Notes: a model not told the origin generated them from the letters alone. Numbered from the whole stretch's first letter, positions 19,123 through 49,237 are shown. The stretch: 57,551 nt of DNA, filler included, from Jimgerdemannia flammicorona (GCA_003990765.1; 3 parts of 3 records of this genome joined end to end with filler, not necessarily neighbours in it); one strand, 5' to 3'. Numbers and translations: made by a program.

Positions 19123-19222
19123 NNNNNNNNNNNNNNNNNNNNNNNNNNNNNNNNNNNNNNNNNNNNTTAATTAATTAANNNNNNNNNNNNNNNNNNNNNN
19201 NNNNNNNNNNNNNNNNNNNNNN
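19123..19222. other. Artificial contig spacer
   Basis: 44 N + TTAATTAATTAA (stops in all six frames) + 44 N = 100 nt. Confidence 0.95.
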
Positions 19223-21698: not shown

Positions 21699-22874
21699 GT
21701 ATCTAGACAGCTCCTTTCTCCACTACCTTACTGGTCACAAGGTTTGGTAGACAACCTTCTAAGTTCCCTTTCCCCTATTATTACTCCCTCTACCTCGGGT
21801 TAGTTTGCTGTGCCTGTAGGAGCATGGTGGGAGGAGGGCAATGGTGATGAGTTGCCTCTTTATCGGTGTCAGATCGGTGCTTCCTCCACTTTTTCATAGA
21901 TTCTGGTGCCTTCGGCTACATCTGGGGTGTACCTGTTTTGGTGTGGCGCCTTCTTCCTTTTGCCGTCACCAACAAGGAGTTGTCTTGGTGTGTCTCGGGC
22001 TATGTAGGGAGTTGGCCGACCTTGGGTGTCAAGTGTTCAGTATAGGTTATCTGCAGGTCCTCGGTACCTGTAGTGGGGCCCTCTGGCTTTGGCAAGCTTC
22101 CTGGTGAGTGCGGTTCTGGCATAGGTGACTGTTTTTCAGGTGTTGTCAGGATGGGAGGGGAGATGGCCGTCACAGATAGGAGGAAGGGTGATAATGGTGA
22201 ACCAGTGGGGTGCCAGGCTGGGAGTGTTCATTGGGGCTGGGGCAGGTACTGCTTCAGTGGAGCTTTTTGATTGATACGGCATGGTTAGGTGGTAGGTGTC
22301 ACTATCGGCTTCTTTTGGCGGTCAGCGGGGTTGGGCCCCAGTCATCAAGGGGGGTCAGGAGGCCCGAGGCTACCCATTTCAGGTATCTTGGCTGCACTCA
22401 ACTAGAACTGGGAGCTGATATGGCAACATGATCGAGGCCTGCAGGCTTGAGTAGTGGGGTATTGGGGGCTTCCTCCTGCCTCACATATAAGTCCTTTACT
22501 CACCTCAACTGGGAGAACCAGGCCCTACCCACTATGTTGTACTTTGATGAGAGTTTTTTCTTTGTCTGTCATCCTCTTTGGGGTGATAGGGGCTATTCTA
22601 TTCAGCTCGGGCATGGCCTTGTACATATGTTGGGTTCTCAGGCATGTGCTTTCGGTCATTGGCATATAGTTGGGTTTCCCCTAGTGGTAGGGAGAGCATG
22701 GTGTACAGAATGAGATACAGGCCTATATTGGCCCTACTGTACCTGGTATGGTCGAGCTGCTGAACAATAGCTAGCCTAGGTTAATGGGGGAGCAGTGCTT
22801 GGTAGGTGGTGGGGGAGGGTTTTGGCCTATATAGTCTAGGTTCCCTTCCAATAAAAATCTGCAGGACATGAGTC

Positions 22875-22956
<82 letters not shown>
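21699..22956 (+). mobile_element. Poly(A)-tailed retroposed insertion, probably a 5'-truncated LINE of another family
   Basis: TSD gagacttatat at 21688-21698 and 22957-22967. AATAAA at ~22850 and ~78-nt poly(A). Retains CpGs unlike its host. Confidence 0.75.
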
Positions 22957-22959
<3 letters not shown>

Positions 22960-25900
22960 ACTTATATCTAGAGAGCTATCTGTAAGAAATAAAAGGAAAT
23001 AATCTGTAGTAGGGCTGAGAAGGTAGTGATAATTTTTGCAAAGCTTTAAATAATTTTATTGATGGTGATGAATAGTCTATGTATATTATCATTAAATATC
23101 AATGATCTGTATAATAGAGTCAAGTGGTGGCATCTGTTTTGTTGACTGAAAGTCAGAAGGTATGATGTGGTTTTTCTTTAGGATATTTCAGCCTATAGTG
23201 GACAGAATTATAATGAGTAGAGCAAGGAATGGTATGGTGGTGCTGGCTGGAATGAGCAGGTGGGCATATTAGTTAGTATGGGAAGAGGTAAGCTGGTAGA
23301 GATAGAAGTTTATAGTGATCAATTGATATGGAGTAGATTGAAAGAAGTAGCTAAGAATGGGCTAGTTGTGGGCTCTGTTTACTTTCTGATAGTTGGCAAA
23401 GAACAAAAGCAATGGGTGGAGGGCTGACTGACTTAGGAAGGCTGAGAGGAGATTGGGTTGGACATTCTGAGGGGAAACTTTAATATAGTATATGACAGAA
23501 CATTAGACAGGTCTGATGGTGAGATTGGTATAGCTGTCTTAGCTAGACTTTTACAATGGCTTCAGATTGAGAGAGATATAGAGTTGGTTGATAGTATCTG
23601 ATAGCATCAGGGGGAAAAGCCAGGGCCCTTTACTCAGTAACATCCTATTGGCAAAGGTCTGGTGGAGACAAGAATTGACTGGGTTCTGGTGGCTGAATAT
23701 TGGGGCAATATGCTGGACTTTGCTGAGACATAGTAGTACTCTTAGTCAGATTACTGGAGAGTGGAGGTGTGTGATAGATTTCAGGTAGTCAGTGATAGTA
23801 GGAATCACTGACAACTTAATATGGCTCTCCTAAGAAGACAGGCTGAGCAAGATCAATTTGTGGCAATTGTAAGGCAGAAAGTGATGTGATGAAAGGATGA
23901 GGAGTAGCTGATAGAGCAGTGGTGGGGTAAATTTAAACATTTGACAGATATCTATTAGTATGATATTAGAGAGGTAGTAGGCAAAGAGCAGAAAGATAAA
24001 GAGAGGAAAGTTGAGCAAGGATTGCAATAGCAGTTGAGATTAATGAAAGGGGGAAATCTGTCAGAGAAGATATACTCCCAATTAACTATAGAAGTGGCTG
24101 AGCTGTAGCTAGATTTGAAGGTAGCTGAGGATAGGGTTGTAGATGGTCTGCTGGTATGGCTGCAGGCCAGATAGCTGGAAGAAGAAAAGCAGTCTACTAA
24201 GTATTTATCAGATATTTTGAAGGCCAGAAGGATATGATACAGCTGAGCCTTAGTGTCATAAGAGGATGATATTGAGGTCACTGAAATTGCTGAAATTCTG
24301 AGAGAGATCTCAGAGCAATAGCAGGTTCTTTGGTAGAATGAAGGAGGGCTTATAGAGGGTGAGGTATTATAGGAGGTTAATGACAATTTGGTGGACAGTT
24401 GACTGATACTAAGATGGGTGAGACAGTGATGAGCATGGTGTCTCTTGAAGAGATATTGGGGGTGCTAAGAAAAGTGCAGACAGGTTCATCACTAGGGGAG
24501 AATAAGCTACCTTAAGAATTCTGGAAGGAATTCCAGATTGAGTTCAGTGGCTAGTTGGTAGAAATAGTGAACTTTATATTAAAGAAAGGCAGCTGAATTA
24601 GCAATAGTTCCTTGAGATTAGTCACTCTACAGTATAAGGAGAAGGAGGATTGATATATATAGTGGAATTGGTGATCTATCATATTACTGAATGTGGATAG
24701 GAAGTTAGTTTCTAAGATTCTGGTAGAGAAGATGCAGTAGTAGATTGGCAGACTAGTGGGTGAGAACCAGTGAGGCTTTGTTAAGAGGAGACAGATTAGA
24801 GACAATACTGCCTGAGTATAGAATGTCTTAGAGGACTGTAGGAGCTGGTAAGTAGATGAGTAGATAGTCTTCTTAGATCAAGAAAAGGTGTATAATAGGG
24901 TACAGTAGAATTATTTGGAGGCAGTACTGCAGAAGGCAGAGTTCAGTATGATAGATACAAGAAGACTGATGGGTCTGGTGCAAGGCTGCTGAGCAATAGT
25001 ACTAATAAATAGGTAGAGTGGCCTGGAGTTTACCTTGGAAAGAGGTGTGCTACAGAGTAATCCTCTTTCTCTCCTACTTTATATTCTCTCTTTAGAGCCT
25101 TTGTTGGCTTGGCTAAAGGAGCAGCTAACTGAATTGCAGATGGAAGATATGGCTTGGAAGCTAGGAGTTTTTGCTGATGATATGGTGGTTGGATTAGGCT
25201 GTATAGAGGATGTGGAATACCTGCAGAAAGGTATTGGGCAGTATGAGAGACTGGTGGGAGTAAAATTAAATTAGGACAAGTATGAGATAATAGAGCTTAG
25301 TATTGGTTTGAGAGAGAATAGGCAATTTAGACAAATAGTGGTCATGGGGAAAGCTATCAGATATTTGGACATCTGGTTTTTGATATATAGAACAATGCTA
25401 TCAAAAGAGTAGTAGTATAATATAATATAGAAGTAGGAGGAAACTTTGACAGATTGGTCAGGGAAGAGCTTCTCTTTAGTAGATTGAGTGGTGGTTTTGA
25501 ATATATATTAGTTGCCTAAGTTGTAGTATTTGGGATACCACCTAGATTTTTCTAGATGGGTGATACAGAGACTGAAGAAGAATGGTTGTAGCAAGAGAGG
25601 CAGCTGTAGATTGATTAGGAGACTATGGTGATACAGATGGCAGATGAGAACCTGGAGTTAGTGAACTTCCAGAGATAGTTAAAGGTACTCTAGAGTTGGT
25701 GGGGGTGTTAATTGGTAGAGTTGGGGGAGAATAGTAGGGGCAGACTAGCTATGGACAATTGGAAGGTCAGGTTCTACCTCTATAGTAAGGTCTGAAAGAA
25801 TATACAAGGTTTGCTTTAGGTGGGAAGTATCAGTAAATTGAGTATAAGGGGTTCTGGTTGAGTATGGTAGAGGTCTGGTTGGCCATGAGATTAGCAAGAC

Positions 25901-26253
25901 TGGGGATAGGTAAGAGAGAGGATCCAGAATAGAGATAGTAGTGATTGGAGGACCTTCATATTGGTGGCCACTGGTTGGCAGAGTACTCTCTATCTGAGGC
26001 AATAGAATAGATCAGATCTGGCCCTCTTAAGAGGTGGCCAGTAGGTTGGCAGAAGGCTGAATTCAGTGAAGGCTGGGAATGGAGATAGATCTGAAGCTGG
26101 GGGGCTTCCTTGCTTAAGGTTATACTGTTTAAGTATTGAGTAATATAGTGGTAATTCTTGAAGAAAAATATGATACTGGGCTACTGGACAGGATGGATGG
26201 TAGTGAAAGGTGGTTGGGAATGTAAATAGTATAGTGAGGTGGATGAGAGAGCA

Positions 26254-29200
26254 CCAGTACTATTCAGGTGACACAAGACTCAGACAACACTTTTTAAATG
26301 TTTTTAATGATCGATGACTATCAACATAGATGGCAATAATTGTACTAGTGAGTGTGCTGGCCAGGGGGGCAGTGGTGCCTTTGGCTGACAACAGGTGGGG
26401 AGGAGGGGAGATGGTTTGGGGATGCCAGGGGCCTTGATGACTGGCCGAGACACTAGTGGTGGAGGGAGGGGTGGCCTGAGGCAGCAAGGAGGGGAGAGGT
26501 TGACCTTTGCAGACAAGGTCAAGATGGGGAGAATGGCCTCTGGTCTGGATAGTTGGCTGGGCCTAAGGAAGGCATTGACAGCTGCTGCTGAGAGATAGAG
26601 AGGAGTGCCCAGGGGAGTGTCTGGTAGTAGGGGAGGGGAGGGGAGTAGGGGCTAGAGATGTGACTGTTAATAGGATTGTGGCTGGGAATCTGGAAAAAAA
26701 TCCAGATGTGATGGCAGTTGATGGTTCAGGACAGGGGGTGGGCATGAGGCCCAGGGACCTGGCGAATGGGGTGACAGGTATGGCGTTGGCACTGTTACTC
26801 AAGAAATCAAGGTCAGAATTTGCTATCACAATGTATTTCAGGGGCTTGGCAGTAACTGCAAGGACGATCTTGAGGCTGGTGGTGCAGGAGGCAAAAGGGG
26901 CAGCATCGGTGAAGTTTTTGAAGGGGAAAGAAGGGGTTGAGGTGGGGTTTGAGAAAGAGGAAGTATTGCTGACTGCCATAGAGAAGGGGGTAACAGTGGG
27001 TGGAGTTGTGGTCCCTATGGTCAGGTACATATGCTGGGACCCCTGAGTGGTATAGTTGACAGTGTTGGATCTTTCTATGGTGTCAAGAGAGAGGGCCAGA
27101 AAGTTGATTGTGGGGGCAGTTAAGGAGTATAGTGAGATTGTGGATATCAGATTCAAGATCTGGGAGGGTACAGAGCTCTGAACTAGTGACATCAACATTC
27201 AGGTGAGACTGGCTGGAAAGGAGAATATGGGGAAGATAAGGGATTGGCTGGCAACTCTGAAGTGGAGACAGGTGAAGTGCAAGGTTATATGGATGAAGAG
27301 AACTCAGGAAGAGGAGGAAGATTTGCTTGAGGCTCTAGAGGATCTGGCTGGTGTGGTCGAGAGGAGGAGATTGGCTTAGAAGGAGTATGAAGCCAAGACA
27401 GTAGTGGAAGTAGTCAATGGGAAGAGGATTAGGATGGATTGAGAGACCTGGGAGAAGATGTAGGAGAGGGGAATTCAGAAGGAGCTGCTAGTAAAGTTGG
27501 GTGACAGTGGGGCTGGCAGTAGCAAAGGGGATGGGAGAGCAGGATTGCATGAGAGTTCCTGGGCAGGGGAATGCAGGATGGTCCAAGGTAGGGTCTAGGA
27601 TAGACCAAGAGAGGAGAGGAAGGGCAGTGTGGAGACAGATGTGAAAATGAGCAAAGGGGTTCACCCTCAGTATAGTGTCCTAGGTGGGGCAGGGGGTGAG
27701 GAGGAGTTACTGGATATACCCGATGAGGAGTGGGATGAGTCAGTAAGGAGGAGCACTTTGGTGGACCCAGAGGTGGGGGGTGATTGGGTTGCCCAGGGTA
27801 TGGTGGAGGCAGTGGATAAGGAGAAGTAGCTGTGGAAGACTCTGGAAGGAGTAGCAGTAGAAGAGCTGGGGGGAGAGGACTTCTGGGTTATGGAAGAGAG
27901 GCATTGGGAGGAAATCCTTCATAGTGAAGAGGTACCAAGAAAGGTGAGGAATGAGATCCTAGTGGTCCTCTTGGAATCAGTTGAATACCAAGTTGATGAT
28001 CAGAGAGAGGAGGAACTTAGAGGGATTGTGAATGACTGGACAGCTTACTTGTGGGGTTCAAGGAAGGGATTGGAGAAGTAGAGAATGGTCTGTACAGACT
28101 ATCAGTCAGAGATAGAGATGGTGGATAGGGTGGAATATCAAGAGATCTTGGAGGTATTGGATGCTCAGACTGTTGTAGAGAGTGACTTGGAAGCAGAGTG
28201 GCACTTAGATCTGACTGGGGATGAGATGAGCATAGAATACTAGGCTAGGGTCTCAAATTCAAATATTATTCAATATGAATAGTACAACTAGAATATTCTC
28301 TTTGAACATGAATGGGCTATGGGGGGTAGCTAGAAGGAAGTACATATTTGGATGGCTAAAGGGACTGGATGCAGACCTCTTTTTACTACAGGATATTCAT
28401 TATGAGGTAGATGTGGACTTACAGGATTAGACTAAGGAATGGGGAGGGGCTGCAGTGTGGACAGGGAGGGTGGGCATCCTAGTTTGAAAGGGGATGGGGG
28501 ATATTGGGGACATTGGACATTGGAGGACTTAGTTGGTGTAGGGAGTATGGAAGAGGCCTAGATGGTGCCTATTGATAGTTGGGTCATGTTACTGCCCAGC
28601 AGAGAGAGGGGAATGGGTGAATTGGATTTGAGGTTTGAAAGAGACCAGTATCTTGGATGAGATTGGGTTTGACTACCTGGGGGTAACTTCAACATGGTGC
28701 AGGATAAGGGGATAGACAGGACAGATGGTAGGAGAGGAATAAGGAGCAGGAGTAGTGGGTTGGATGATTGGTTGGAGGTGGAGAGGTTGAGTTCTTTGGT
28801 TGATTCAGAGAGACAGTTTTGGAGCAATCATTGAATTTATACTCACTGGGCAACAGAGCTGGGCTTCAGGATCAACTGGATATTGATGGCAGAATGCTGT
28901 AAAGTAGATGTTTGGACTATGTTGGAGGTGGTTTGGTGTCCATGGCCAGATCACTGGGGTCTGTTAGGAGGGGGGAGGTTTGGGGGAAGTGGGGATAGGC
29001 CTGGACATTGGTGACTAAATTCTTCTTTGTTGGAGAATGGGGCTTTATGGGTAGACTGAGAGAAGGAGATTATTGGGAAAATTGGGAGGTAGTGGAAATA
29101 GGGCCTAGTGATTGGGGACTGCTAGAGGAGGCTAAAAGCAAGTACTCAGGGATATTGGAGGGAAACAGGGAAAGAAAGGTGTGCTCAGCAGTAGCAGTGG

Positions 29201-32027
29201 GTGCTATGGGCCTCGCAGCAATTGGTGGTGCTTATGGGAAGATGGACAGGGGTGCTAGAAGACAGGAAGGTGGCCAACTGGCATATTGTGAGAATCCAGA
29301 AGAAAGTAGAGGAGCTTAAGAAGGTATTATGAAGGGAGGAAGAGGTTAGGCTGAAGGGGATGGTGGCATGGCTGAGGTAGCAGGGGCTTGAGGAGGGAGA
29401 GAGACCCACTAGGTTTTTATTATAGATGTTACAAGTGCAGAGAACTAAGCAACAGTGGGATGGGGTCCTGAATGTAGATGGGGAGATGGTGGTGGGGACT
29501 CTGGCAATTCTGGAATTGCTGAGGACCTGGTGAGAGGATTTGTGGAATGAGGAGGAAGGGGGAGAGGATGCTTTGAACATTGAGAGGCAGCTGGAGGATT
29601 GGCATCTAGACCCTACAATGGGCCTGGGGACTCTGGGGGATCCAGTGAGGGGAGAGGAAGTTTGCAAGGTCTTGGCTATGACAAGTAAGGGGATGGCTCT
29701 AGGGGAGGATAGACTTCTCTGGGATTTTTGAAAGAAGATAGCTGGGGTAGCAGAGATATTGGAGGAAATAATGGAAATGTGTGATGAGGTTCTTCAGTCT
29801 AGAACTTGGATTGGGGGCCAGTGCCTAGGGCTGGTCTCCTTGCTCTACAAAGATAAGAGGAGATGAGAAGATTAGAAGAACTGGTAGCCAATCATACTAC
29901 TCAACATAGACTGTAAACTGGTAACTAAGATATTGGTGGTGAGGCTGCAGGAAATCACTCAGCAAGTTCTTGGTGTGGAGCAATGAGGATTTGTCAGTGG
30001 CTGGTTGATCCATAATGGAATGGCTTGGATATATGGTATGATTGAAGGGGCCCAGGCTGCAGGGGTGGATGGTAGACTGGTTTTTTTGGATCAGGAGAAG
30101 ATGTATGATAGAGTGAGGAGAATCTGGTTAGAGGGAGTGTTAAAACGAGTTGGTGTTCCCCCAGGGTTCCAAAGGTCATTGATCAGCCTTTTGGAATACA
30201 GTCAGGCTGTATTAGTTGTCAATGGCCATAGGGGTGTAATCTTTCCTCTTGGTCATGGGGTGCCACAAGGAGATCCTTTGTCATCCATCTTATATGCACT
30301 CTCTCTGGAGCCTCTACTGGACAGGATCTGGTGTCAAGTTGGGGGGTTGGATATTCTAGAGATAAATTGGAAGGTGGGGGCCTTTGTAGATGACATGGTG
30401 GTTGGACTGGGCTTGTTGGCAGATATGAGAGAATTAAGAAGATCTGTTGAATGGTATGAGAGGGGCTCTGGTACTAAACTCAATTGGCACAAATGCAAGA
30501 CTCTGGTGCTAGGTGGTGGAATCATTGGTAGTGATGTGATTGGAATGATGGTACTGGCAGGAGAGCTAGTTCATTACCTGGGGATCTACTTTTCAGTATT
30601 TGGGTCCCTTCTCTCCTATGCTTGATGGGATCAATGACTCCTGGAGTAGGGTAATATGCTTTTGTGATAGGGTGGTCAGCATATGTCCTTGGCAGAAAGG
30701 GTGATGGTGCTGAATATGTATTGGCTACTGAAGCTGTGATATGTGGAATATCATCTGGACTTCCCAGTTTGGGTGGTCAGGAGACTATTGAAGATAGTGA
30801 GATCATGGATCTGGGCAGGGCAGTACAGTCAGATAGGATGAGAGGTTCTTACCCTACTAGTGGAAAGAGGTGGGCTGGGTTTAGTAGACTTTACTAAATG
30901 TCTTCACTGCTTGAGAGCCTGAGGAGGGTGAGCAAGCTGAGGGGTCAGGAGTGGGTGCCACTCATACAGAGGGTGTGGGAGGCCTGGTATTCTCCCCATA
31001 GAGATTCTGGAGACCTGCTTGTGATGGTGGCCATAGATGAGAGCAGGAGAATGTAGTATAAGGGCTTTTGGTGGGGGGTGGTGGATGGTGCTAAGAAAAT
31101 TAGACTTCAGTAGCAGGGTGAGGAGAGAGAGGAGGATTAGAGACTACAGATGTGGAGATAGGACAGGCTATTGCTGGGCAGTGTTTTGGTGGAGGACTTC
31201 CAGCTTGGTAATGGAATGGAGTGTTTGCAGGGCTTAGGTGGGGACCTTTGGCCTGAAGCCTGGCAGAGGGTTGAGATTGGTGAGGAGTGGGACTGGAATG
31301 GTCTCTGAATTTAGAGCAAGTGGGTGATGTGATGGCTACCCCCCAAGTTCTGGGTGGTATGGTGGCAAGTTCTATGGCAGAATGTGATATTGAACTATTG
31401 GTCTGGGCACTTGGTGGCTGGTGACATATTTGAGTGTAAGAAATGTCTCAATGTTAGACAGGAAGGGGGAGTGATACAAACACCTGAACATTGGCTTAGT
31501 GAGTGTGCCATATTGGGGGTGTTTTGGTATCATATCGCAGACTGGTTAGGGCTGTGAGCCCTGGAGGGAGGGAAAGGGGAGAGGTGGGGAGAGCTCCACT
31601 GTAGGCTAGTAGGAGAGGTAGGAGATGAATGGCTGACCCTTGGTTGGGCTCTGACCATATGGGTTGGGATGGCTGGGCATTGGGTACATGTATTTGAGGA
31701 GGACCAGTGGGTTGAAGTTGGGGATAGAGTAGTATATTGAGAATAGTTACTATTGGATATTTTGAACAGCTGGTGGTGAGGGTGGGGGCCAGGTGGGGGG
31801 AGTCGCAGGGGTTTGGTATAGTGTATCTCCCAGAAAAGTGGCAGGAGGATTCAGGTGGTGGGTGACTGAGCTATCCTCCAGCAGGGGGAAGTAGAGGGTA
31901 GAGGAGTAGATCTGAGGGGTATCAGTTGAGGAGATGGGGTGATATTGTATTATTATTATTATAGATGACAGTAATAAAGAGAAGTCTAAGTAACTTTAAA
32001 AAAAAAAAAACAAAAAAAAAAAAAAAA
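26254..32027 (+). mobile_element. Near full-length L1/Tx1-like LINE, family A copy 2
   Basis: TSD gaggtggatgagagagca (26236-26253) versus gagatagatgggagagta (32028-32045), with 4 mismatches that are all transitions. ORF2 remnant 28275-31929 has LDQEK, GVPQGDPLS and FVDD. Poly(A) tail present. Confidence 0.9.
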
Positions 32028-32559
32028 GAGATAGATGGGAGAGTAATTTAGATACCAGAGTATGTTCTGGCAGCCTGTCCTGGTATGGAGAGATATTGAC
32101 AGATATTGGAGAGTTATTGGGGCTCTGAGAGTAGGTAGCTAGAGGATCCCACTAGTCTGATAGTTAAGTGACAACTGGTGGAAGAGACTGATAATATCTG
32201 GGATAGTCTGGGTCAGGTCCTGAAAGTCTGGATCCTAATAGTAGTACATTAGTAATGAGTATTTAAGTGGGATCTGTGGATGAGAATTGGTGAGTTGGTT
32301 GAGTGGTGAAAGTGACTTCTCTGAGAGATAGTACAAGAGTGGTGATATCAGAGAAAGCAGAATTAGCTAGAAACTATGAAAAAGATACAGAACATTGTCC
32401 AGAGGAGCTAAGATCATCTGGTGCTAGATGACTGGGGGGTTCAGTAGAAGGAAGATATTGGCTGATAGACCTTTTATTTGTACATTATTATTGTAGCAGT
32501 CATTGTATAGAGTTTGGTATTATGTATATTAGATATTCTTAGGTAATAAAGAAGTCTAA

Positions 32560-33576
32560 TGGGGGGAGGCCCTATGGAGCTAAGGAGGCCACCACTTGTC
32601 TCTAATGGAGTATGTTTCCATTTTGAATACTTACTGGCTGCTGAAGTTGTGATATCTGGTATATCATCTGGACTTTCCAGCCTAGGTGGTGAAGAGATTG
32701 CTGAAACTGGCCAAGGGGTAGATCTGGGCAGGGAGGAGGAGTCAGATTAGCTGGAAAATTTTGTCCTTACCAGTAACTAGAGGAGGTCTCAGGCTGGTTG
32801 ACTTCCCAAAGAGGTTACACTGCCTGAGAGCATGATGGCTGAAGAGAGCTGTTGAGCTGGGGGATGGTAGCTGGGTTCCTCTATTGAAGAAGGTCTGAGA
32901 GGTCATCACTGAGGGGAGCTACAGGAGATCTTCTATCCTTGATTGAGCTTCAGAATAATGGACACATGTAGTTTAAGGACTTCTGGTAGAGAGCCACTGA
33001 TGGGGTACACTATATTGGCATTCATTGGCAGAGAGATGAGGGAGAAAGGCCTTGGGGCCTGGCAATGTAGAGATGGGACTAAGTGTTGCTAGAGAGTATC
33101 CCACTTGATGACTTTGTTATTAGAGATAAGGTTGAGTACCAGAGAGAGTTGGGGTAGGATCTGTGATCCAGTAGATGGTAGTTAGTGGGTGTTAGTAAAA
33201 AGTAGGACTAGAATAGAATTTGGAGCTGGAGTACTGAGATTCAGTAATGGCTGCCACTAAAGTATTTGGTGGTCTGGTGGTATATATTGAGGAGAAATAT
33301 CATACTCAACTATTGCTCTAGCCATCTGGTGGAAGGGGGAACCTTTGACTATAAGGAGTGCTATAATGTTAGTCAGAAAGAGGGTTTTGTACAGATGCCT
33401 GAATATTGGCTTAGGGAGTGTGAGATACTCAGTGACTTCTAGATAGCAGTTGGGAAAAGGTTGGGTGTTGTGTAGAGGGGGGATGGTGAGAGGAGTTGGT
33501 GGGAGGATCTGTAGGATAGACTGGTAGAAAGGGTTGGGAGAGAGTGGCTTACTTTAGGGTGGGTGTTGGCTGTATA
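32560..33576 (+). mobile_element. 5'-truncated LINE ORF2 3' fragment, cut by a hAT insertion
   Basis: ILNTYWLLKL*YLVYHLDFP...RGGLRLVDF...QMPEYWLREC is homologous to the family A ORF2 C-terminal half. Confidence 0.8.
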
Positions 33577-33594
33577 TAGTACTCCGAATGAGTC

Positions 33595-34012
33595 AATTTG
33601 AATCAAATCCGGATTTGATTTGTCACATGATGGTTTGATTCGAATCTCAAATCCGAAGCCATCCGGATCAACTTGGATTTAATCCGAATCGCCCCATCCG
33701 AATCGCCCCATCTGAATCACCCATCTGAACTACCCCAATCCAAATCACTCAATCTGAATCACTCAATCTGAATCGCCCCATCCGAATCACCCCATCCGAA
33801 TCACCCATCCAAATCACTCATCCGAACCACTCCAATCCGAACCACTCAATCTGAATCACTCAATCCAAATCACTCAATCTGAATCACTCAATCTGAATCA
33901 CTCAATTTAAATCCTCCAATTCGAATCCTCCAATTCGAATCCTCCAATTTGAATCCTTCAATCCGAATCCTCATCTGAATCCTTCAACCAAATCCTCCAA
34001 TCCAAATCCTCC
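33595..34012 (+). repeat. hAT subterminal repeat array (atccgaatc-cored ~13-14 bp units)
   Basis: Tandem atccgaatcgcccc / atctgaatcactca / atccaaatc variants, which differ mostly by CpG decay. Confidence 0.85.
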
Positions 34013-34106
34013 ATATGACTCATATGCCAGATACATCTACAACACAACACACACACATGCATACACATACATGCATACACATGCACACACAAACATGCAA
34101 ACACAC

Positions 34107-36683
34107 ATGTCGACAGATCAGTCTTCAACAGTTCACAGTACCGATGATGCTTCAAGTCAAACATCCCTGATAGTTCCACACCTTCCATGCAATCCTTGCT
34201 CTGAAATCTGGCAACATTGTACTAAGATAGGAGATGATGTTGTTTGTAATTATTACAGGTAAAAAATTAAGACGCACCTATTGATACTTTGTTTTGACAC
34301 ATATATGATATTGTTTGATACACACATGATATTGTTTCATCCACCCCTATGAACTGCACCAGCCAGAAGTTCAAAATGCTTGGGGGTATGACTTCGAACA
34401 TAAATTGACACATAAAAGACAAGCACTCTGACAAAAGAACATGGAGACAAATAAAATCGACATCCAAGCTGTGGTGGGTACGTTTATCCGATTGCCTGAC
34501 CATTTCTGTACCAACAATGCCATTTAATCAAAAATTTTAGCCATACTCTTTGGCAGAATTTCGAAATCGGCTCATTCGCTGGATTGTGTGCACAGACCAG
34601 CCATTCACAACCATCGAGAGTGATCAATTGCATAGCATCTTTGGCCTTCTCAAGCATGATTTATATTTGCCAAGTGCCGATACTATTCGCAAAGATGTCC
34701 TGGAGACCTATAGGAAGGAGTACGACAATCTCCACCAGACACTTCAGGTAAAATAAGGGCAGCACCATGACCTTTGCAAGCTGAATTATACAAAAGAGCT
34801 CACCAATTTAACCTCACATTCAATAAGCAGAATTCGGCAGGCAAAATTTTGTTTACAATCGACACATGGACATCCCCCAATGCAATTTCATTTCTGGGCA
34901 TTACCGGTCATTGGATTGACCTCGATTGGCAGCTTAAATCTCTCACCCTTGACTTCATCAAACTTGCTGGCCCTCATTCTGGAGACAACATCGCAGATAC
35001 TTTTATTAGTTATATCCGGGAGTTTGGGATCACTACCAAGGTAAAAAAGGGGGGCTTGCCGTCAGGTCAGCATTTTGAGGGAGGTCCTAAACCAAACCAG
35101 ATTTTATTGGTTACTTATTTTCACATAAATTTATCAACCAAATGTTTCAAGTACAGATTTTTGCCATTACGACAGATAATGCTACAAACAACTCAACATT
35201 TTTTCAAGGTTTAGCAGCCAGCCTCAAACAGGAAAATGTGGCCTTCAGTGCAGAAAGCTGTCATATGCGATGCCAGGCCCATGTACTGAACCTCACTGTT
35301 CAGGACTATCTTATACATGTAGACAAAACATCCGAGAGAGGAGGGGCCCTGAGTATAATTTCCAAGCTGCGCAAACTGGTTGTGTTGGTCCAATCATCCC
35401 CACAATGATGAGACAAATTCGCTGCGCAGTGTAGGGCAATCAGTTTAGCCCCGAAAGAGCTTATATTAGATGTCTGTATGCATTGGAACTCAACATTTGT
35501 AATGATCCAGCGCATGCTGGAGTTTGCTGTGGTATGTATCCTTTTTTTCTTCGGTCAGCTGAAGCAACTATTTCGGATAATGGAAGATTTATTTTTAAAA
35601 AAAAAAAAAAAGCCAATAGATTCAATGATGACTGCCGACAAGGAAATATGGGCTGAGGCTCTAGGTGAAAGCGAGTGGGACGTACTTAGGAATGTTGTCA
35701 GAGTTTTGGAAGTAAGTGGTGGTTGCTCTGGCTCCACACTCATTTTGTCTGCCTCCATACAGTGCAACACCTCACCACATATAACTGCCAGTGTTTTGAC
35801 AATTGTACAAAGGATATAGTCAAACAAATGACCCCAACAATAAGCTCTGCAATACCGGTATACAACCTTCTGATTGACCGGCTAGAGGACAAGCTCGAGG
35901 ACAGGCTGGAGGGTTGCGGTGATTTACGGTTAAGCCTGGATCAGAGAGATGCCGTGGTGGTTGCTCTAAGCAAGCTTAGAAAATACTACACCCAAACAGA
36001 TACCGCCATATACTCAATCAGTACAGGTATGTTGATGTCGGCGTGTGGCCATTGCCCCTTCCAAAACAGAGAAAACCCTGCAAAAACTCACTCTCCTTTT
36101 CTTCGAATAGTGCTGGACCCATACTTAAAGCTACAATACCATAAAAATCAGGGCTGGGAGCAGCACTTCATTGAGAGAACCAAGCAGGCCATAATTGAAG
36201 TGTACCGGAAAAACTATGCACCGCCGCAAGGTTCTGGCCGAAGTCCGGACGAATATGCCGAGGGATCCCTCCTGTCCCACATTTACTTTGGCAGAAAGAG
36301 GAAGAGGGAGCCATCAGTGGAAGAGCTGCTGTCAATAGATGAACTTATCATTTACCTCGCCAGCGACCGCGTGGTTCTGCTGGAGGGCACGGAGGTGCTC
36401 AACTGGTGGAAGGTGGATTGTCTGGTGGACATTGGGCCAATTTAACCCACCAATCTAACCACTGCTCTACTCTACCCACTGGGGCATGCAGCTGCATCAA
36501 ACAGACTTCCCCAGCCTGTGTGGTATGGCTTGGGACTACCTGGCGATTCCTGCCTCCAGCGCTCCCATCGAGTGGGTGTTCTTAGATGGGGTGGACCTTG
36601 TTGCTCCAAAGAGGTGTGTGCTGAATGCTGAGACAATCTAAGTGTGTATGTGTCTGAAGTCTTGGTGGGGCTCAGGCTGCTAA
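34107..36683 (+). pseudogene. hAT transposase with BED zinc finger, multi-intron, inactivated
   Basis: BED motif IWQHC..CNYY/..TSNIN*HIKDKH. Catalytic-core motifs DTWTS, TTDNATN, CQAHVLNL, DVCMHWNST and LDPYLK. Dimerisation domain WWK..DYLAIPASSAPIE..LNAETI*VCMCLKSW. Several stops, e.g. TGA TGA at ~35406 consistent with CGA CGA. Confidence 0.92.
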
Positions 36684-36784
36684 AATTCGGCGGGTCCGCA
36701 GATAAGTTGGTTGGCCTTGTGGAATATTTAATACCTTTCAAATTAATAAAAAGGAAAAAAACCTGAGGACTCGGCCTGGAGTTT

Positions 36785-37145
36785 GCAGCCAAAGTGGAGC
36801 AGGGTTGGCAGCCCCAAGCTACCAGTGCCTGGGTCGGTGGGCAGGTCGGTGGGCAGGTCGGTGGGCAGGTCGGTGGGCAGGTCGGCGGAGGGAGTACGCA
36901 AAATTTGCGGCCCTCCACCGGCAGCAAGGGGCAGCCCCAAGCCGCAAGTGTCCGGGTCGGGGGGGGAGGTGGAGGGAGCACGCAAAATTTGCGGCCCTCT
37001 GCCAGCAGCGAGGGGCAGCCCCAAGCTGTCAGCACCTGGGTCAGTGGGCAGGGTCAGTTGGCGGGCGGGGCAGGCAGAGGGAGCGCACAAAATTTGCGGC
37101 CCTCTGCCAGCGGCATAGGGGCAGCCCCAAGCCGCCAAGGAGTCT
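36785..37145. repeat. GC-rich composite tandem repeats with short palindromes
   Basis: 12-mer ggtcggtgggca x4-5 at ~36831-36885. Three longer units (~36889, ~36973, ~37078) contain (cg)caaaatttgcg and ggggcagcccc. Confidence 0.85.
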
Positions 37146-37367
37146 AGGGCGGAGGGTGCTTCTGGTGGTCAGAGGGTGCTTCTGGCGGTCGGAGGGCGTT
37201 TCCGGCGGTCGAAGTTGCCGGTTCGGGTCCCACGGGCACCCCGGCCCTGCGCTGCAGCACTGCACTGGCGGCACTGCAGAGCAGGGCCGAGGGGCCGGTA
37301 GGGCCCTGCATAATGGCTAAGCTAGTGCTACATAAGAGGTGCCCGGCCCAACCCCCCCACATAAGAC

Positions 37368-37452
37368 TGCCCAACCCGCACAAAATGGCTGCCTAACCCT
37401 CACGAAAGATTGCCTAACCCTCACGAAAGATTGCCTAACCCTCACAAAAACT
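37368..37452. repeat. 21-bp tandem repeat containing cctaaccct
   Basis: tgcctaaccctcacgaaagat x2 (37390-37431), a third near copy (37432-37452) and a diverged copy at 37368. Confidence 0.85.
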
Positions 37453-38215
37453 GCTCCACCCGCTGGTCCCAGGCCTTGATGAGCCTGTCATCCGTTGTGA
37501 GTGTGACGACTGTTGTGTCCGAGCTCTCCTCGAAGGCGACAGTGCTGTGGTGGTCGTGTGGTTGGAATAGGATGGCCGTGTTGGCCGCAAACGGGACTCC
37601 GAAACTATAGGTGAGGTCATACCAGACTCCGCCGCTATCCTCCCAGGTTGGGCCCTTCCTTTCCGGGACGTAAAACATTACCCGGGTGACGTTGTTGTCT
37701 GTGTGTGTGGGCAGAGAAAGGTTGTGCCCGACATATCCTGATGTGACGTGAGCATACGGTTGAGTGAACCCTTGGCCCAGGACCTCATACTGCCAGGCTG
37801 TGCTGGTGGATGCCTGCCCTTGGTCCAGCCCCGGGAGCCCTGGCTTGGAAACCTGCCAAAACAGACGGTAACCAATCAGTCCTTTTTGCATTTGGAGGGC
37901 AGAACCCGGGCCACAGAAACCCCCCGGGCTGTAGCACCCCAAAAAAGCGGAGCTCCTCACCTTATACGGTATGCTAAATTGCGCCAAGAACGTACATACA
38001 GCCGCACCGAGGTCAACACCAAGTTGGCCTGCCATACGCTCTACCAATCTGCTCAAAGAACCCCAGATCATAGCCACCATCACCGCACAGGCCGTGTCGT
38101 GCTCGCGTGCAGTTTGCTCTTCGACGGTACTTCTAAAGTTCCGGTAGGGGTACAGAATCTTGTGCATCTCTGGAATTGTATCAAAAAGAGTATGTTGGCG
38201 AAGAGTGTGATTTAT
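37442..38215 (-). CDS. Putative TET/JBP-like Fe(II) dioxygenase (DSBH fold), last two exons; 5' part lost in the gap
   Basis: Acceptor tttaacccctccccAG precedes 38215. An in-frame 108-nt intron 37960-37853 (GTGAG...ctgat...CAG) gives exons 38215-37961 and 37852-37442. Product contains NLSLPT-HTD, SGGVWYDLTYSFGVPF and ILFQPHDH-HST. No stops. Family call from motif pattern only. Confidence 0.65.
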   Translation of the reverse strand: MNHTLRQHTLFDTIPEMHKILYPYRNFRSTVEEQTAREHDTACAVMVAMIWGSLSRLVERMAGQLGVDLGAAVCTFLAQFSIPYKVRSSAFLGCYSPGGFCGPGSALQMQKGLIGYRLFWQVSKPGLPGLDQGQASTSTAWQYEVLGQGFTQPYAHVTSGYVGHNLSLPTHTDNNVTRVMFYVPERKGPTWEDSGGVWYDLTYSFGVPFAANTAILFQPHDHHSTVAFEESSDTTVVTLTTDDRLIKAWDQRVEQFL

Positions 38216-38339
38216 CTGGGGAGGGGTTAAAAAAAAAGGGAGACGAGTGCGGGGGATTTCGGAACCCACCCTTCGCCAGTGTTGCAGTATACCCAATTCC
38301 CGTCCAAACCCCCCTCCTTGCTTTTTTCGCCCCCTCTTC

Positions 38340-38439
38340 NNNNNNNNNNNNNNNNNNNNNNNNNNNNNNNNNNNNNNNNNNNNTTAATTAATTAANNNNN
38401 NNNNNNNNNNNNNNNNNNNNNNNNNNNNNNNNNNNNNNN
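38340..38439. other. Artificial contig spacer
   Basis: 44 N + TTAATTAATTAA + 44 N. Confidence 0.95.
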
Positions 38440-45772: not shown

Positions 45773-45960
45773 TAGTGCTCTGATTGAGTCAGGAAATTCA
45801 AACCTAATTCAAATTTACCAACCATATGTCAGATTCAAGCCAGTTCAAATTCATCATATGATAAATTTGAATCAATTCAAATTTAAATTTGATATCTAAT
45901 AAGTTCAGATCAGTTTGAACCTAATCAAACTAGCTTAAATTCATCTCAGAAGCCAGAATC
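45773..45960 (+). mobile_element. hAT-type TIR with subterminal ttcaaat repeats
   Basis: tagtgctctgattgagtc resembles the TIRs at 33577 and 48157 and cuts the Gypsy dUTPase. Predicted TSD attatagg. Partner TIR not found. Confidence 0.7.
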
Positions 45961-46155: not shown

Positions 46156-46590
46156 TTACTCTTCTAAGTTTTCAAAAAATTTATTATAGTAGCATATAGC
46201 TTTCAAGGTTCTGTGACAAATACTTAGAGATAAACTGTTCAAAACTTCTCTATCTCTAATAACTGTTGAACTATATAGTTGATTTAAGTAAAACACTATT
46301 ATATATTAGACTCTAGCAGAACTCCAATACTATAAGCCAAATTATAGAATAAGCCCCCAGATTTTGAGGTATACTGTTCTTTATATTTGATGATATAGAG
46401 TAAAACAGATATTATATCTTAATTAGTATAAGTAGGAGAGCTTATATATTGGCCAAAAAATATATTGCTGACTTTTGCTACATTTTGCTCAAACTGAAAT
46501 TCTCCAAGTCTAAAATGTATCCTAGATTGACCCAGATTCATCTGACCTCTATCTATTCCAGATAATTTCAAAGCTGATGAAGATACTAGT
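46156..46590 (-). pseudogene. Decayed homolog of the TET/JBP-like catalytic exon
   Basis: LSGIDRGQ..AKVSNIFFGQYISSPTYTN*DIISVLLYI..SGGLFYNLAYSIGVLLESN/IVFYLNQLYSST..RTLKA aligns nearly ungapped with LPGLDQGQ..AHVTSGYVGHNLSLPTHTDNNVTRVMFYV..SGGVWYDLTYSFGVPFAAN..ILFQPHDHHST..RLIKA. One stop and one frameshift. Confidence 0.8.
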
Positions 46591-46644: not shown

Positions 46645-49133
46645 TATTACATAGTTCTGGAAGGGTTTTCTAGAAGTTCTGAATATTCTGGAAGACTGTT
46701 TTCTTATGGTCAAGATCAATTTTGTATGGAGTATGTCCTCTATGCTTATTGATTTCAAGATCGGGTTGACATCTCAACCAAAGTCCTTTTTTGGACTAGT
46801 TCTGAATGTTCAGGATTTTCTATATTTCAGAAAGTTCAAAAAACTAAGACCAGCTTAGTTGAATTGGCATATCACTATAGACAATACCCAATTAGGAAAT
46901 TTTATAATGGGGTTAGGAGTGGGATCTAGCAGGGAGCAGATTTACTTAAGAGTGATTTGTGAGTTATTAAATAGGTTTATTTGCTATTCATGATATTGCT
47001 ATACTAGGAGTAGTTGTATGAAGGGATATTTGTGAGGAAGTGTTCAAGAATGTTCTTGTGTATTTGAGTCTATTCAAGTCTGAGATTCTGAGGTCTGGGG
47101 GAGGGGGTATTTATACTAGTGAGGGGCTATCTGGACTATGCTAGATATAGATATAGCACTAAGTGCCTTACTGAGTCAGAATACAGTTATATAGTACAAG
47201 TGTGATCTGATATGTCAAGAGATCATCTGACTACTGAGTCAGTTCACAGTTACATCATACAAGGCTAATCTAACTATACTATGACTGCTAAGCTATTTAT
47301 AGGTTTAGGCACTGTCTGGGTAGTCTTCAATGATATTATCATCAATGATATTATCTCTAATAAAGTAGTCATCTAGGAAGAGTGGTTTGCAGATTACTTC
47401 TCCTTATTTGCTGAGGTAGTAATACATTGGGACTTCATCACCATCCTATAGGATAGTATCATCTGTCTCATATGCTGGATAAGGTATTGATGGACAAAGG
47501 AGGGGTGCATTGTTTTCACTTTCATCAGATTTGCTGTCTGCATATCTTCTATAGGTTATAGCACTATTATAGTAAGCTGGTGGCTGTGGCTCATATTGCT
47601 CATACTCAGATGGTGGAGTGGTTGGTTCGATCTTGAGGGTTGTCTGAAGGTATAGATTGTATTCTCCAGTCTCTTCATTATAGTTGAAGTAATCAGGAGT
47701 GAATATGAGTTAGTATTCATGTCAGTGGTCATTGTCTCAATAAGTCTCGTAGGTGGTTATGAACTATTGTAAGTTCATTGGCAGGGTTGGCAGAGTGATC
47801 AGGGTTGGCAGAGATTCTTGGCTTGAGGTCATATCAGCATCAGAGGGATTATTGTCTTCTGCTTCATCTTCATCAAACCAGATTATATTATAGATGTCCT
47901 TCATGGCATATCTGACTTGAGACATTTGTAGGATATGGTCGTCAGGATGGGGGAAGGTTCTGTCTGTGGTCTGAATGTATTTGAGATATTTGTGGTTGAG
48001 TTCTTGTATCATATTGTTGATTTGGCCATAGGATAGAGTAGTAACCATTTCACTGGTGGTAACTCAGAGGTAGGGAATAAAGGTACTATACTTGTAGAAG
48101 AGTTCTCTATGTTTGCAGGCAATGAGTTTCTGGTATTGAGACATCTGGGTAATATCTAGTGCTCCCAACGAATTGAATTGAATTGAATTTGGCCCAAACT
48201 CAATTCGATTCAATTGAATCAAGGGTCCAATTCGATTCGATTTGAATCGAATCAAAGGTCCAATTTGATTTTGAAGTTTGATTTGAACCTTAATTTTCAA
48301 AATGTAATAACTTGACGAAAACTCATCCAAATTTAACATATTTTAGCTTGTTAGATTCACCGTATTAATGTGATTCTAACAAGCTAAAGTATGTTAGATT
48401 TGGATGAGTTTACGCTGAGTTATTGCATTTTGAAAATTAGGGTTCGAATCAGACCCTCAATTTGATTCAACTTTTGATTCGATTTGAATTGATTTGAATT
48501 GAAAAATTCCCAATTTGATTCGACTCATTTAACCCTCAATTTGATTCGATTTGAATTGATTCAACTCATTTGGGAGCACTAGTAATATCTGTATTATGGT
48601 GGTATTTGACCATGTCTTTTAGGAGACAGCTAATCTGGTAGTAGCTTGAGATTTGTCTGATTTGGTGGGTCTTGTTAAGCATGTTCAGGGTGTTCCATCA
48701 GGCTTCCACAAAGTAGAGGGGTGCTAGGCTATGGATATTTATGAGGGGCAGAGGGAGTGTGGCTCAGTTGCCAATAGTATTCCAAATGTCAGTATGGATG
48801 TGGTTGTAGATCTCAGTAGTCATATTTGTATATGTTTGGAAGTTGTGGTTATTGTTTGTTTTGGTTCTTTGTTTCAACACATCTTGGTATCCAATATATA
48901 TGCATTTGGTCCTGATTGGTAAGATTCTGTTTGTGTGAATCTTGTGTTTTGTGACTTCATATTGACTCAGCTTTGTGTACTGTGACTTTGGTTTGACTCA
49001 GCTTTATAATTGTGCAGGTGATTTCCAGATTTGTTCAGAGGTCACGTGTGATTTTGGTGGCTTGTTCAGAGGGTGACATGTGATTTCTGTGACTTAGAGG
49101 TTATACACTTACACTGAAGTCAGAGATACCAAG
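46645..49133 (-). mobile_element. Probable LTR (~46645-47350) and 3' internal region of another retroelement, with unidentified decayed ORF(s)
   Basis: Minus-strand agtataaataccccc (~47110) and aataaa (~46978), CpG depletion, and broken reading frames (e.g. 47764-48048). No recognisable domain. Confidence 0.35.
48157..48581. mobile_element. hAT-family MITE (425 bp) with internal foldback
   Basis: Perfect 12-bp TIR tagtgctcccaa/ttgggagcacta, 8-bp TSD gtaatatc (48149-48156, 48582-48589), attcga/attgaa subterminal repeats and a central inverted repeat. Confidence 0.95.
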
Positions 49134-49237
49134 AATGCTAAGGATGCTAGGCTCGGACCTTTTACTGGTAACATTCGGGTGACATAAGACTCAAACAACA
49201 TCTTTTACAATGTTTTTGGTACCCGACGACTAACAAC

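Follow-up and report, generated by a model that had tools for sequence, protein, structure and literature searches.

A decayed gene for a putative TET/JBP-like dioxygenase beside hAT-type transposon ends in Jimgerdemannia flammicorona

What kind of enzyme is encoded beside a hAT transposase in the genome of Jimgerdemannia flammicorona, and which mobile element carries it? The question is raised by positions 33577 to 38339 of a 57,551-nucleotide stretch of DNA from this fungus (the window, filler included), where an open frame on the minus strand, bearing motifs of the Fe(II) dioxygenases of the TET/JBP type, runs towards a hAT transposase gene on the plus strand. An earlier note on this DNA had taken the enzyme for cargo of that hAT, serving to counter cytosine methylation. 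The window consists of three contigs joined by assembly linkers, which were read from the sequence as runs of N around TTAATTAATTAA at 19123-19222 and 38340-38439; the dioxygenase frame lies at the far right of the middle contig, with the second linker (38340-38439) as the contig boundary, and a second copy of the gene lies on the third contig. Logan contigs of four metagenome runs (X1-X4) were compared with window positions 35500-38339, parts of 36925-37304 being without contig cover in X3 and X4.

The answer that we favour, with reasonable if far from complete confidence, is that the frame is a decayed copy of a multi-copy, transposon-associated TET/JBP-like gene at the edge of a hAT-type element. 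Positions 37442-38339 would then represent the 3' two-thirds of a decayed copy encoding a divergent TET/JBP-like Fe(II) dioxygenase, the order of its motifs being closest to that of the PU type described in Puccinia graminis transposons. The carrier element would start at 37323 with TAGTGCTACA, would possess 21-bp subterminal repeats, and would abut, or be nested in, a decayed autonomous hAT that extends from 33577 to approximately 36700 and beyond. The substrate of intact copies would be 5-methylcytosine, or a related methylated base, in the DNA of transposons, and its oxidation would blunt both methylation-based silencing and CpG hypermutation. A transposon-borne enzyme that oxidises 5-methylcytosine would be a direct counter to methylation-based genome defence; the locus would add to the known examples a very divergent branch, missed by current Pfam models and almost absent from protein databases, and a second hAT lineage apparently linked to TET/JBP-like genes.

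Gene structure, copy number and decay

The minus-strand frame is uninterrupted from 38338 to 37445 (298 codons, P0003) and is followed by a stop codon at 37444-37442. Comparison with relatives resolves it into an exon at 38339-38269, an intron at 38268-38170, an exon at 38169-37961, an intron at 37960-37853 and a last exon at 37852-37445. With its stop codon the last exon occupies 37442-37852 and encodes GR(H)-x5-H-T-D, SGG followed by an aromatic residue, and H-(G>S)-T. The intron preceding it (37853-37960; 108 nt, GT..AG) is open in frame, and in alignment the predicted proteins P0004 and P0006 skip exactly these positions. The middle exon (37961-38169), reading (E)MHKILYPYRNF ... FSIPYK, is recognised by its match to P0007 and by the family alignment. 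Upstream of it lies an intron of 99 nt (38170-38268; GT..AG), found at the same place in the metagenome contig L001, the acceptor of which is set at 38170/38169 by co-linearity with P0006, P0010 and L001 ('..GYTVSYAKG / MH..ISP..NF'). The partial upstream exon (38269-38339; ..GVWTGIGYTATLAK) is in another frame than the middle exon and ends at the contig boundary. Of the two exons drawn in the earlier note, therefore, the open frame and the intron at 37960-37853 stand, but the exon start at 38215 falls inside an intron, which contains the whole of 38215-38170.

Within the last exon, T-H-T-D is encoded at 37697-37708 (HTD itself at 37697-37705), S-G-G-V-W-Y, the SGG-plus-aromatic motif, at 37619-37636 and H-H-S-T at 37541-37552. 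H212, D214 and H264 of P0003 make up an HxD...H triad with a metal-type histidine spacing of 52 residues, and this triad is conserved across the family alignment, decayed copies excepted. Because the gene is cut by the end of the contig, roughly 150-200 N-terminal residues would be missing from the window copy, judged against the 374-aa P0006, which would leave approximately the C-terminal two-thirds. One X4 contig extends 139 letters beyond 38338, and the first 30 letters of this extension, translated by eye, resemble the '..CEEAF.LR.AG' segment of P0006.

The frame belongs to a small protein family. A HMMER scan of 1.84 billion representative proteins returned six matches at E <= 0.001, of which the best was P0004 (136 aa, 86% identity over the last exon, E 8.1e-72), followed by P0005 (55% identity, E 2.3e-33) and P0006 (35% identity, E 4.4e-16, in two matching stretches), the last of these covering all three exons; P0007 (55 aa) matches the middle exon, P0008 is also among the six, and the sixth, a repetitive protein of 2128 aa (E 1.6e-4), was regarded as spurious. 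Word-based protein searches with P0006 and with alignment A1 (P0006 first, 7 rows) added P0010 alone, a homologous-protein search with P0003 as query gave no match, and a scan of metagenome contigs with alignment A2 found two loci. The family alignment retains G-R-C-A-[ST]-S-P-x-H-x-D, GG with an aromatic residue, and H-G-[ST]; features of the family's own are an invariant arginine seven residues before the first histidine and a near-invariant [EK]R-x-G after HxD. Metagenomes from soil and roots contain relatives; P0008 stands in a cluster of 28 members, and L001, a metagenome contig of 3.7 kb, holds a full gene of the P0008 type. L001 and L002 come from different metagenomes and are approximately 99% identical, flanks included; in L002 the dioxygenase gene has stop codons of two kinds, TGG>TGA and CGA>TGA, a decay by transitions like that in the window.

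In X1, 1038 contigs aligned on 2.8 kb with identities from below 90% to at least 99%, which shows that each of the two parts, hAT and dioxygenase, exists in multiple copies that vary mostly by transitions. A second, P0006-like copy of the gene was located by tblastn on the third contig of the window, in two halves that are both on the minus strand with a guanine-plus-cytosine (GC) content of 0.28-0.29. Its C-terminal half (46162-46580) is heavily AT-decayed, with a GC content of 0.29, and its N-terminal half (55073-55743) lies about 8.5 kb away, the intervening sequence holding a LINE-like (long interspersed nuclear element) insertion and a complete hAT-type miniature inverted-repeat transposable element (MITE). 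The earlier note had allowed that homologues might prove to be single-copy in conserved host synteny; with two copies in the window and the many X1 contigs, single-copy they are not.

Long repeats with a strong plus-strand skew of G over C (0.4-0.58) were also observed at 3000-8000, 20000-33000 and 49000-55000; RVT_1 matches fall at 29987-30622, 51338-53137 and 53141-54178, and there is an A/T run near 54910-54940. These skewed repeats look like LINE-type retroelements, one of which appears to split the second dioxygenase copy. Very long T runs, in the minus-strand reading, lie upstream of that copy at 55850-55960 and 57370-57420.

The window copy has decayed in the manner that the earlier note supposed for the transposable elements of this genome, by erosion of C to T. 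Among the 40 best-supported differences listed between the window and the metagenome contigs, 32 have T or A in the window and C or G in the other copies, and 17 of those 32 are changes of CpG to TpG or CpA. Two of them fall on conserved residues of the enzyme: at 37725 the window encodes His where other copies encode Arg (R205H, at the family-conserved G-R-C-A position), and at 37546 it encodes Ser where they encode Gly (G265S, at the family-conserved H-G-[ST] position), C (Gly) accounting for 79.8 of 85 depth units in X1. Since 37546 encodes Gly in other copies and in the family, the 'HST' of the earlier note is a mutated HGT, although its letters are present as described, as are HTD and SGG with its aromatic residue. 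The C-run at 38309-38314 is one base shorter in the window; the extra C is found in 58.2 of 82.6 depth units in X1 and in all X2-X4 contigs covering the run, and with it the upstream exon aligns to P0006 free of gaps. The window copy thus either lost 1 nt or suffers from an assembly error in a homopolymer. Hit by CpG transitions and by this apparent deletion, the copy is probably dead. Decay of the enzyme's own conserved residues by CpG transition is the outcome to be expected when the defence wins.

Such a state might also suggest that the frame is a chance opening, or a dead relic without biological significance: it is truncated by the assembly, it has the 1-nt deletion and two missense changes at conserved residues, and its two introns are open in frame, making it look longer than the real exons. 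The family is real, however, with P0004 at 8.1e-72, P0005 at 2.3e-33 and P0006 matching across the exons, and the intron positions are conserved in L001; we regard an explanation by chance or by an empty relic as highly improbable.

Class of the enzyme

The class of the enzyme is approached through its relatives. The ESM Atlas model of P0004, the 86%-identical relative, has a predicted local distance difference score (pLDDT) of 0.69 and a predicted template modelling score (pTM) of 0.59. Eight of its ten listed structure neighbours are families or names of 2-oxoglutarate (2OG)-Fe(II) oxygenases, with template modelling (TM) scores by query of 0.54-0.63: they comprise a Tet_JBP-containing cluster (Tet_JBP in 28% of members, TM by query 0.61), prolyl 4-hydroxylase, 2OG-FeII_Oxy_3, 2OG-FeII_Oxy_5 and HIF prolyl hydroxylase. 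The other two of the ten are unnamed Basidiomycota clusters. By shared features, the best named neighbour of P0004, at rank 3, is a 'Tet-like 2OG-Fe(II) oxygenase' cluster with PF20515 in 72% of its members (score 0.91, 178 of 256 features shared), and the top cluster for P0006 has PF20515 in 15% of members (score 0.96, 209 of 256 shared). Atlas neighbours are to be taken as leads only, and the structure and feature searches with P0004 count as one source. We consider it very probable that the family consists of 2OG-Fe(II)-type enzymes with a double-stranded beta-helix (DSBH), and probable, with less assurance, that they are TET/JBP-like.

Several results weigh against the TET/JBP assignment. 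Pfam, including Tet_JBP (PF12851) and PF20515, gave no match to P0001-P0008 at E <= 10, nor did P0010 and the three L001 exons match Tet_JBP or PF20515 at E <= 1. Searches of PDB sequences with P0003, A1, A4 (window exon first, 12 rows) and P0006 found no relevant match, the sole row being a designed myoglobin at E 0.18. AlphaFold models, by which the earlier note had hoped to establish the fold, were built on shallow alignments, reached a pLDDT of 35.7 (A1) and 39.0 (A4) and were unusable; when the pLDDT-39.0 model was compared with the PDB by Foldseek nothing was found at E <= 0.001 (best E 0.33), and the top rows, Rpn13, a tail-fibre chaperone and herpes gB, are unrelated folds and were set aside as noise. 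TM scores are alike for the TET/JBP and the prolyl-hydroxylase-like neighbours of P0004 and do not separate these classes. By eye, the family has H, N or T in place of the arginine that precedes the last core strand in PU-type enzymes ([ST]R[LI]G), and none of 11 family 5-mers occurs in Table S1 of PMC12730594, within the first 400 characters of its cells.

An oxygenase of the 2OG-Fe(II) type that is not TET/JBP, but prolyl-hydroxylase-like or active on small molecules and merely situated among transposons, would agree with the missing Tet_JBP or PF20515 profile match and with the Atlas, where the prolyl 4-hydroxylase, HIF hydroxylase and 2OG-FeII_Oxy_3/5 clusters stand at the same TM as the cluster containing Tet_JBP. 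It agrees less well with the feature search, in which the nearest named neighbours of both P0004 and P0006 are Tet-like PF20515 clusters, or with the PU-type order of motifs, which by eye extends over the whole domain and includes the L[ML]x[HQ]FN[LA]P helix outside the generic core (PMC12730594). Moreover, a multi-copy, decaying gene linked to transposon ends behaves unlike a metabolic host gene. We find this alternative improbable, and retain a TET/JBP-like enzyme as the preferred class; the earlier note's assignment is backed at the level of leads, by Atlas neighbours and motif order, and is not backed by profile or PDB matches.

The hAT-type elements around the gene

The left part of the region is a hAT element whose left end lies at 33577. 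A candidate 8-bp target-site duplication (TSD; gctgtata) was read from the sequence at 33569-33576, its partner not being found on the contig, and is followed on the plus strand by the left terminal inverted repeat (TIR) of an autonomous hAT (TAGTACTCCGAATGAGTCA, 33577-33595), 16 of the 19 positions of which match, by eye, an end at 45773. Repeat analysis found subterminal 14-bp tandem repeats (AATCCGAATCACTC, 23.7 copies) at 33681-34008 (plus strand). The multi-exon, decayed transposase gene occupies 34108-36684 on the same strand and was recognised by Pfam, with the start codon, a BED-like CxxC..H..C and DxWTS identified by eye; the C-terminal dimerisation domain, Dimer_Tnp_hAT (PF05699), matches at 36459-36641 (E 1.5e-6, 28.3 bits against a cut-off of 21.4). 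The TAA at 36639-36641 reads CAG in all nine X1 contigs that cover it, and the in-frame TGA TGA at 35406-35411 looks like two CGA-to-TGA changes. Between the hAT region and the rest of the window, tblastx detected no second hAT transposase.

Towards the gene this element has no visible right end. None of the 26 TAGTRCT matches in the window lies on the minus strand within 33577-38339, where there is also no inverted copy of the left end, and the left end stands alone on a contig that stops at 38339. Hence the two observations on which the earlier note built, a convergent hAT transposase beside the frame and no right TIR between the two genes, are both confirmed. The genes are separated by a GC-rich spacer with tandem repeats of 12, 84 and 20 bp (36832-37211), the number of which varies among metagenome copies; GC content is 0.44 in the hAT, 0.65 over 36701-37322 and 0.55 in the gene.

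The dioxygenase family is linked to hAT-type ends in three contexts. The first is the window copy itself, which is the neighbour of the autonomous hAT and 113 bp past whose stop codon lies what may be the end of a separate hAT-type element (TAGTGCTACA, 37323-37332, plus strand) with its interior towards the gene; the earlier note had already pointed to TAGTGCT at this position, and it is indeed present. The 10-mer TAGTGCTAYA occurs four times in the window, against 0.29 expected, and none of 100 shuffles reached four. Just inside it are 21-bp subterminal tandem repeats (4.8 copies, 37354-37463, plus strand), which overlap the last codons of the gene. A recurrent 10-mer with adjoining tandem repeats is the anatomy of a transposon end. 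The second context is the other window copy, approximately 390 bp beyond whose stop lies a hAT-type terminus (TAGTGCTCTGATTGAGTCAGG, 45773-45793, plus strand), the same end that resembles the TIR at 33577. The third is L001, in which, some 1.6 kb beyond the stop codon, there are tandem repeats of the ATTCGATTTGA type (8 matches where 0.35 would be expected; none of 200 shuffles reached 8), followed by a terminus that by eye resembles the TIR of the window MITE. This MITE (48157-48581) is complete at 425 bp, with perfect 12-bp TIRs (TAGTGCTCCCAA), a perfect 8-bp TSD (GTAATATC) and subterminal ATTCGATTTGA repeats, the 11-mer being present exactly three times; it occupies part of the intron that is disrupted in the second gene copy, and shows that the hAT lineage made insertions in this genome. 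Among TAGT...ACTA pairs sought together with an 8-bp TSD, the MITE was the only clean case.

Other pairings of ends were considered and rejected. The sites at 42903, 47161 and 47566 have nothing in common with 37323 beyond the 10-mer; 45773 and 47566 as the two ends of one element have offset flanks (TTATAGG, TTATAGT) and were judged a chance pair; two further TAGT...ACTA pairs have 12 of 20 TIR matches and mismatched TSDs.

We think it fairly likely that the gene lies inside some hAT-type element. On the other side of the balance, similarity among the four TAGTGCTAYA sites ends with the 10-mer, the TAGTRCT 7-mer alone is common (26 matches against 15.5 expected), and no complete element enclosing the gene was found in any copy seen. 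None of the contigs listed spans 37323. As to other transposon classes, no KDZ (Kyakuja, Dileera, Zisupton) or Plavaka transposase was matched by Pfam among the 121 window open reading frames (ORFs) of at least 90 aa, a search that decayed or short fragments could escape; the linkage to KDZ or Plavaka that would have told against the earlier note's proposal is thus not seen among these ORFs.

Which hAT-type element is involved is a matter of narrower judgement. A single hAT might run from 33577 past 38339, with convergent transposase (plus strand) and dioxygenase (minus strand) genes and its right TIR off the contig, the TAGTGCT at 37323 being internal to it and incidental. The lack of a right TIR between the two genes is consistent with this, as is the multi-copy state of both parts in the same metagenome runs; the second gene copy, in which the 3' end of the gene comes directly after a hAT end, might have arisen from such an element by internal deletion, and hAT elements carrying TET/JBP genes are documented (PMC12730594). 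Yet 37323 shows two hallmarks of a terminus, the recurrent 10-mer (4 against 0.29) and the tandem repeats directly inside it, and GC content jumps from 0.44 in the hAT to 0.65 in the spacer and 0.55 in the gene. In the described hAT7 cases, furthermore, the TET gene is upstream of the transposase and in the same orientation (PMC12730594), and the ORFs that separate gene from terminus in L001 run in the direction of the gene and do not form a convergent transposase. In all three contexts it is the 3' end of the gene that faces the terminus, which favours a separate element at 37323 over cargo of the hAT at 33577. We therefore consider the dioxygenase a doubtful candidate for cargo of the 33577 hAT, and tentatively prefer a separate element starting at 37323, an assignment that we put a little short of probable. 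Of the earlier note's proposal of hAT cargo, the association with hAT-type ends is upheld in three contexts; its attribution to the hAT with the convergent transposase is not, the 37323 element being at least as likely.

The ORFs of L001 just mentioned are two more open exons (2320-2601 and 2661-2945), which share the strand of the dioxygenase gene and separate it from the hAT-type end; Pfam gave no match to them, and they may represent a second cargo gene of that element. Elsewhere in the window an amino-acid transporter gene is present in two neighbouring copies, at 13449-15465 and 17703-18620 (best Pfam E-values for Aa_trans 1.2e-17 and 9.8e-17), the latter heading towards the contig end at 19122, and at the window start there is a dUTPase domain (41-337, E 1.6e-10) that is perhaps part of a retroelement.

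Comparison with known TET/JBP-carrying transposons

The KDZ and Plavaka elements of fungi reportedly carry TET/JBP genes, according to an account by Iyer et al. of 2014. The window locus is like them in joining a TET/JBP-like gene to fungal DNA transposons, and unlike them in that hAT is the only DNA-transposase signal in the window.

A closer parallel is now in print. TET/JBP genes have been described in 11 DNA transposon lineages (Kojima 2025, Biology 14:1741, PMC12730594), and among these are twenty TET-carrying hAT families ('hAT7', with a 7-bp TSD) in six Puccinia species (PMC12730594, December 2025). The earlier note, which knew of no association with hAT, has in this respect been overtaken. 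Such genes are proposed to counter methylation-based silencing and C-to-T hypermutation (PMC12730594), and the same anti-silencing role is proposed for the window family, by inference in both cases. The hAT7 elements and the window locus are further alike in hAT context, in having a fungal gene of the TET/JBP type that is multi-copy, and in C-to-T hypermutated repeats (PMC12730594).

They differ in their ends and in the placement of the gene. Termini here begin TAGTRCT, whereas the hAT7 consensus sequences of Table S1 start with CAACGGTGGG or CAGCGATGGG (PMC12730594); the one complete insertion here, the MITE, has a TSD of 8 bp against 7 bp in hAT7 (PMC12730594). Within the first 400 characters of its Table S1 cells, the supplement of PMC12730594 contains neither TAGTGCTAC nor TAGTACTCC; TAGTGCTCC is found once in the supplement, within an EnSpm entry. 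Three hAT7 families have the TET gene and the transposase pointing the same way, with the TET gene upstream (PMC12730594), whereas the gene here is the last before the terminus and convergent with the neighbouring transposase.

At the level of the protein, the comparison is with the PU type, whose TET/JBP domains are printed, for transposons of Puccinia graminis, in Table S1 of PMC12730594. By eye, the blocks of the two are collinear: they start with an N-terminal strand, G-x-aromatic-x3-G-aromatic and a helix ending L[ML]x[HQ]FN[LA]P, continue with N-x-F-F ... H-x-D-x-[DN], GG-x-F and [IV]xM[IV][WF]...H-x-T, and close with an S/G-M-S-V strand and A-x-x-R-Y (PMC12730594). One PU-type example, hAT7-5_PGr, has H-G-T as does the window family (PMC12730594). 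The family also has in common with the PU type, PF12851 and PF20515 a spacing of approximately 50 residues in H-x-D...H, an acidic or amide residue soon after HxD, and GG with an aromatic residue before the second sheet.

The arginines set the family apart. In TET2 and NgTET1 the carboxylates of 2OG are held by two arginines (R1261 and R1896 in HsTET2; PMC7854593), and by eye the family has T for the arginine of the PU motif G[WF]R and H, N or T for that of [ST]R[LI]G, although at the latter position hAT7-5_PGr itself has K (PMC12730594). CMD1 of Chlamydomonas has no basic residue at the 2OG C5 carboxylate, and so is unable to use 2OG and uses vitamin C; it is a TET homologue that keeps HxD...H, as the window family does, and an Asp after HxD for cytosine N4 (PMC7854593). 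A bolder proposal would make the family a fourth transposon-borne TET/JBP-like type beside PU, AG and PE, borne on a TAGTRCT hAT with an 8-bp TSD, having both canonical 2OG-binding arginines replaced, perhaps using another co-substrate or performing a different, CMD1-like base modification in place of plain 5-methylcytosine oxidation, and, given its relatives in soil and root metagenomes, perhaps extending beyond the three fungal lineages described so far. We think this unlikely, but the importance of the locus would rise were the co-substrate pocket truly altered, or the spread truly wider than the three known fungal lineages. As matters stand, TET-carrying hAT elements being already described (PMC12730594), the window family is a divergent member, at most a variant, of that published kind, from which it differs in its ends, its TSD, the placement of its gene and the divergence of its protein.

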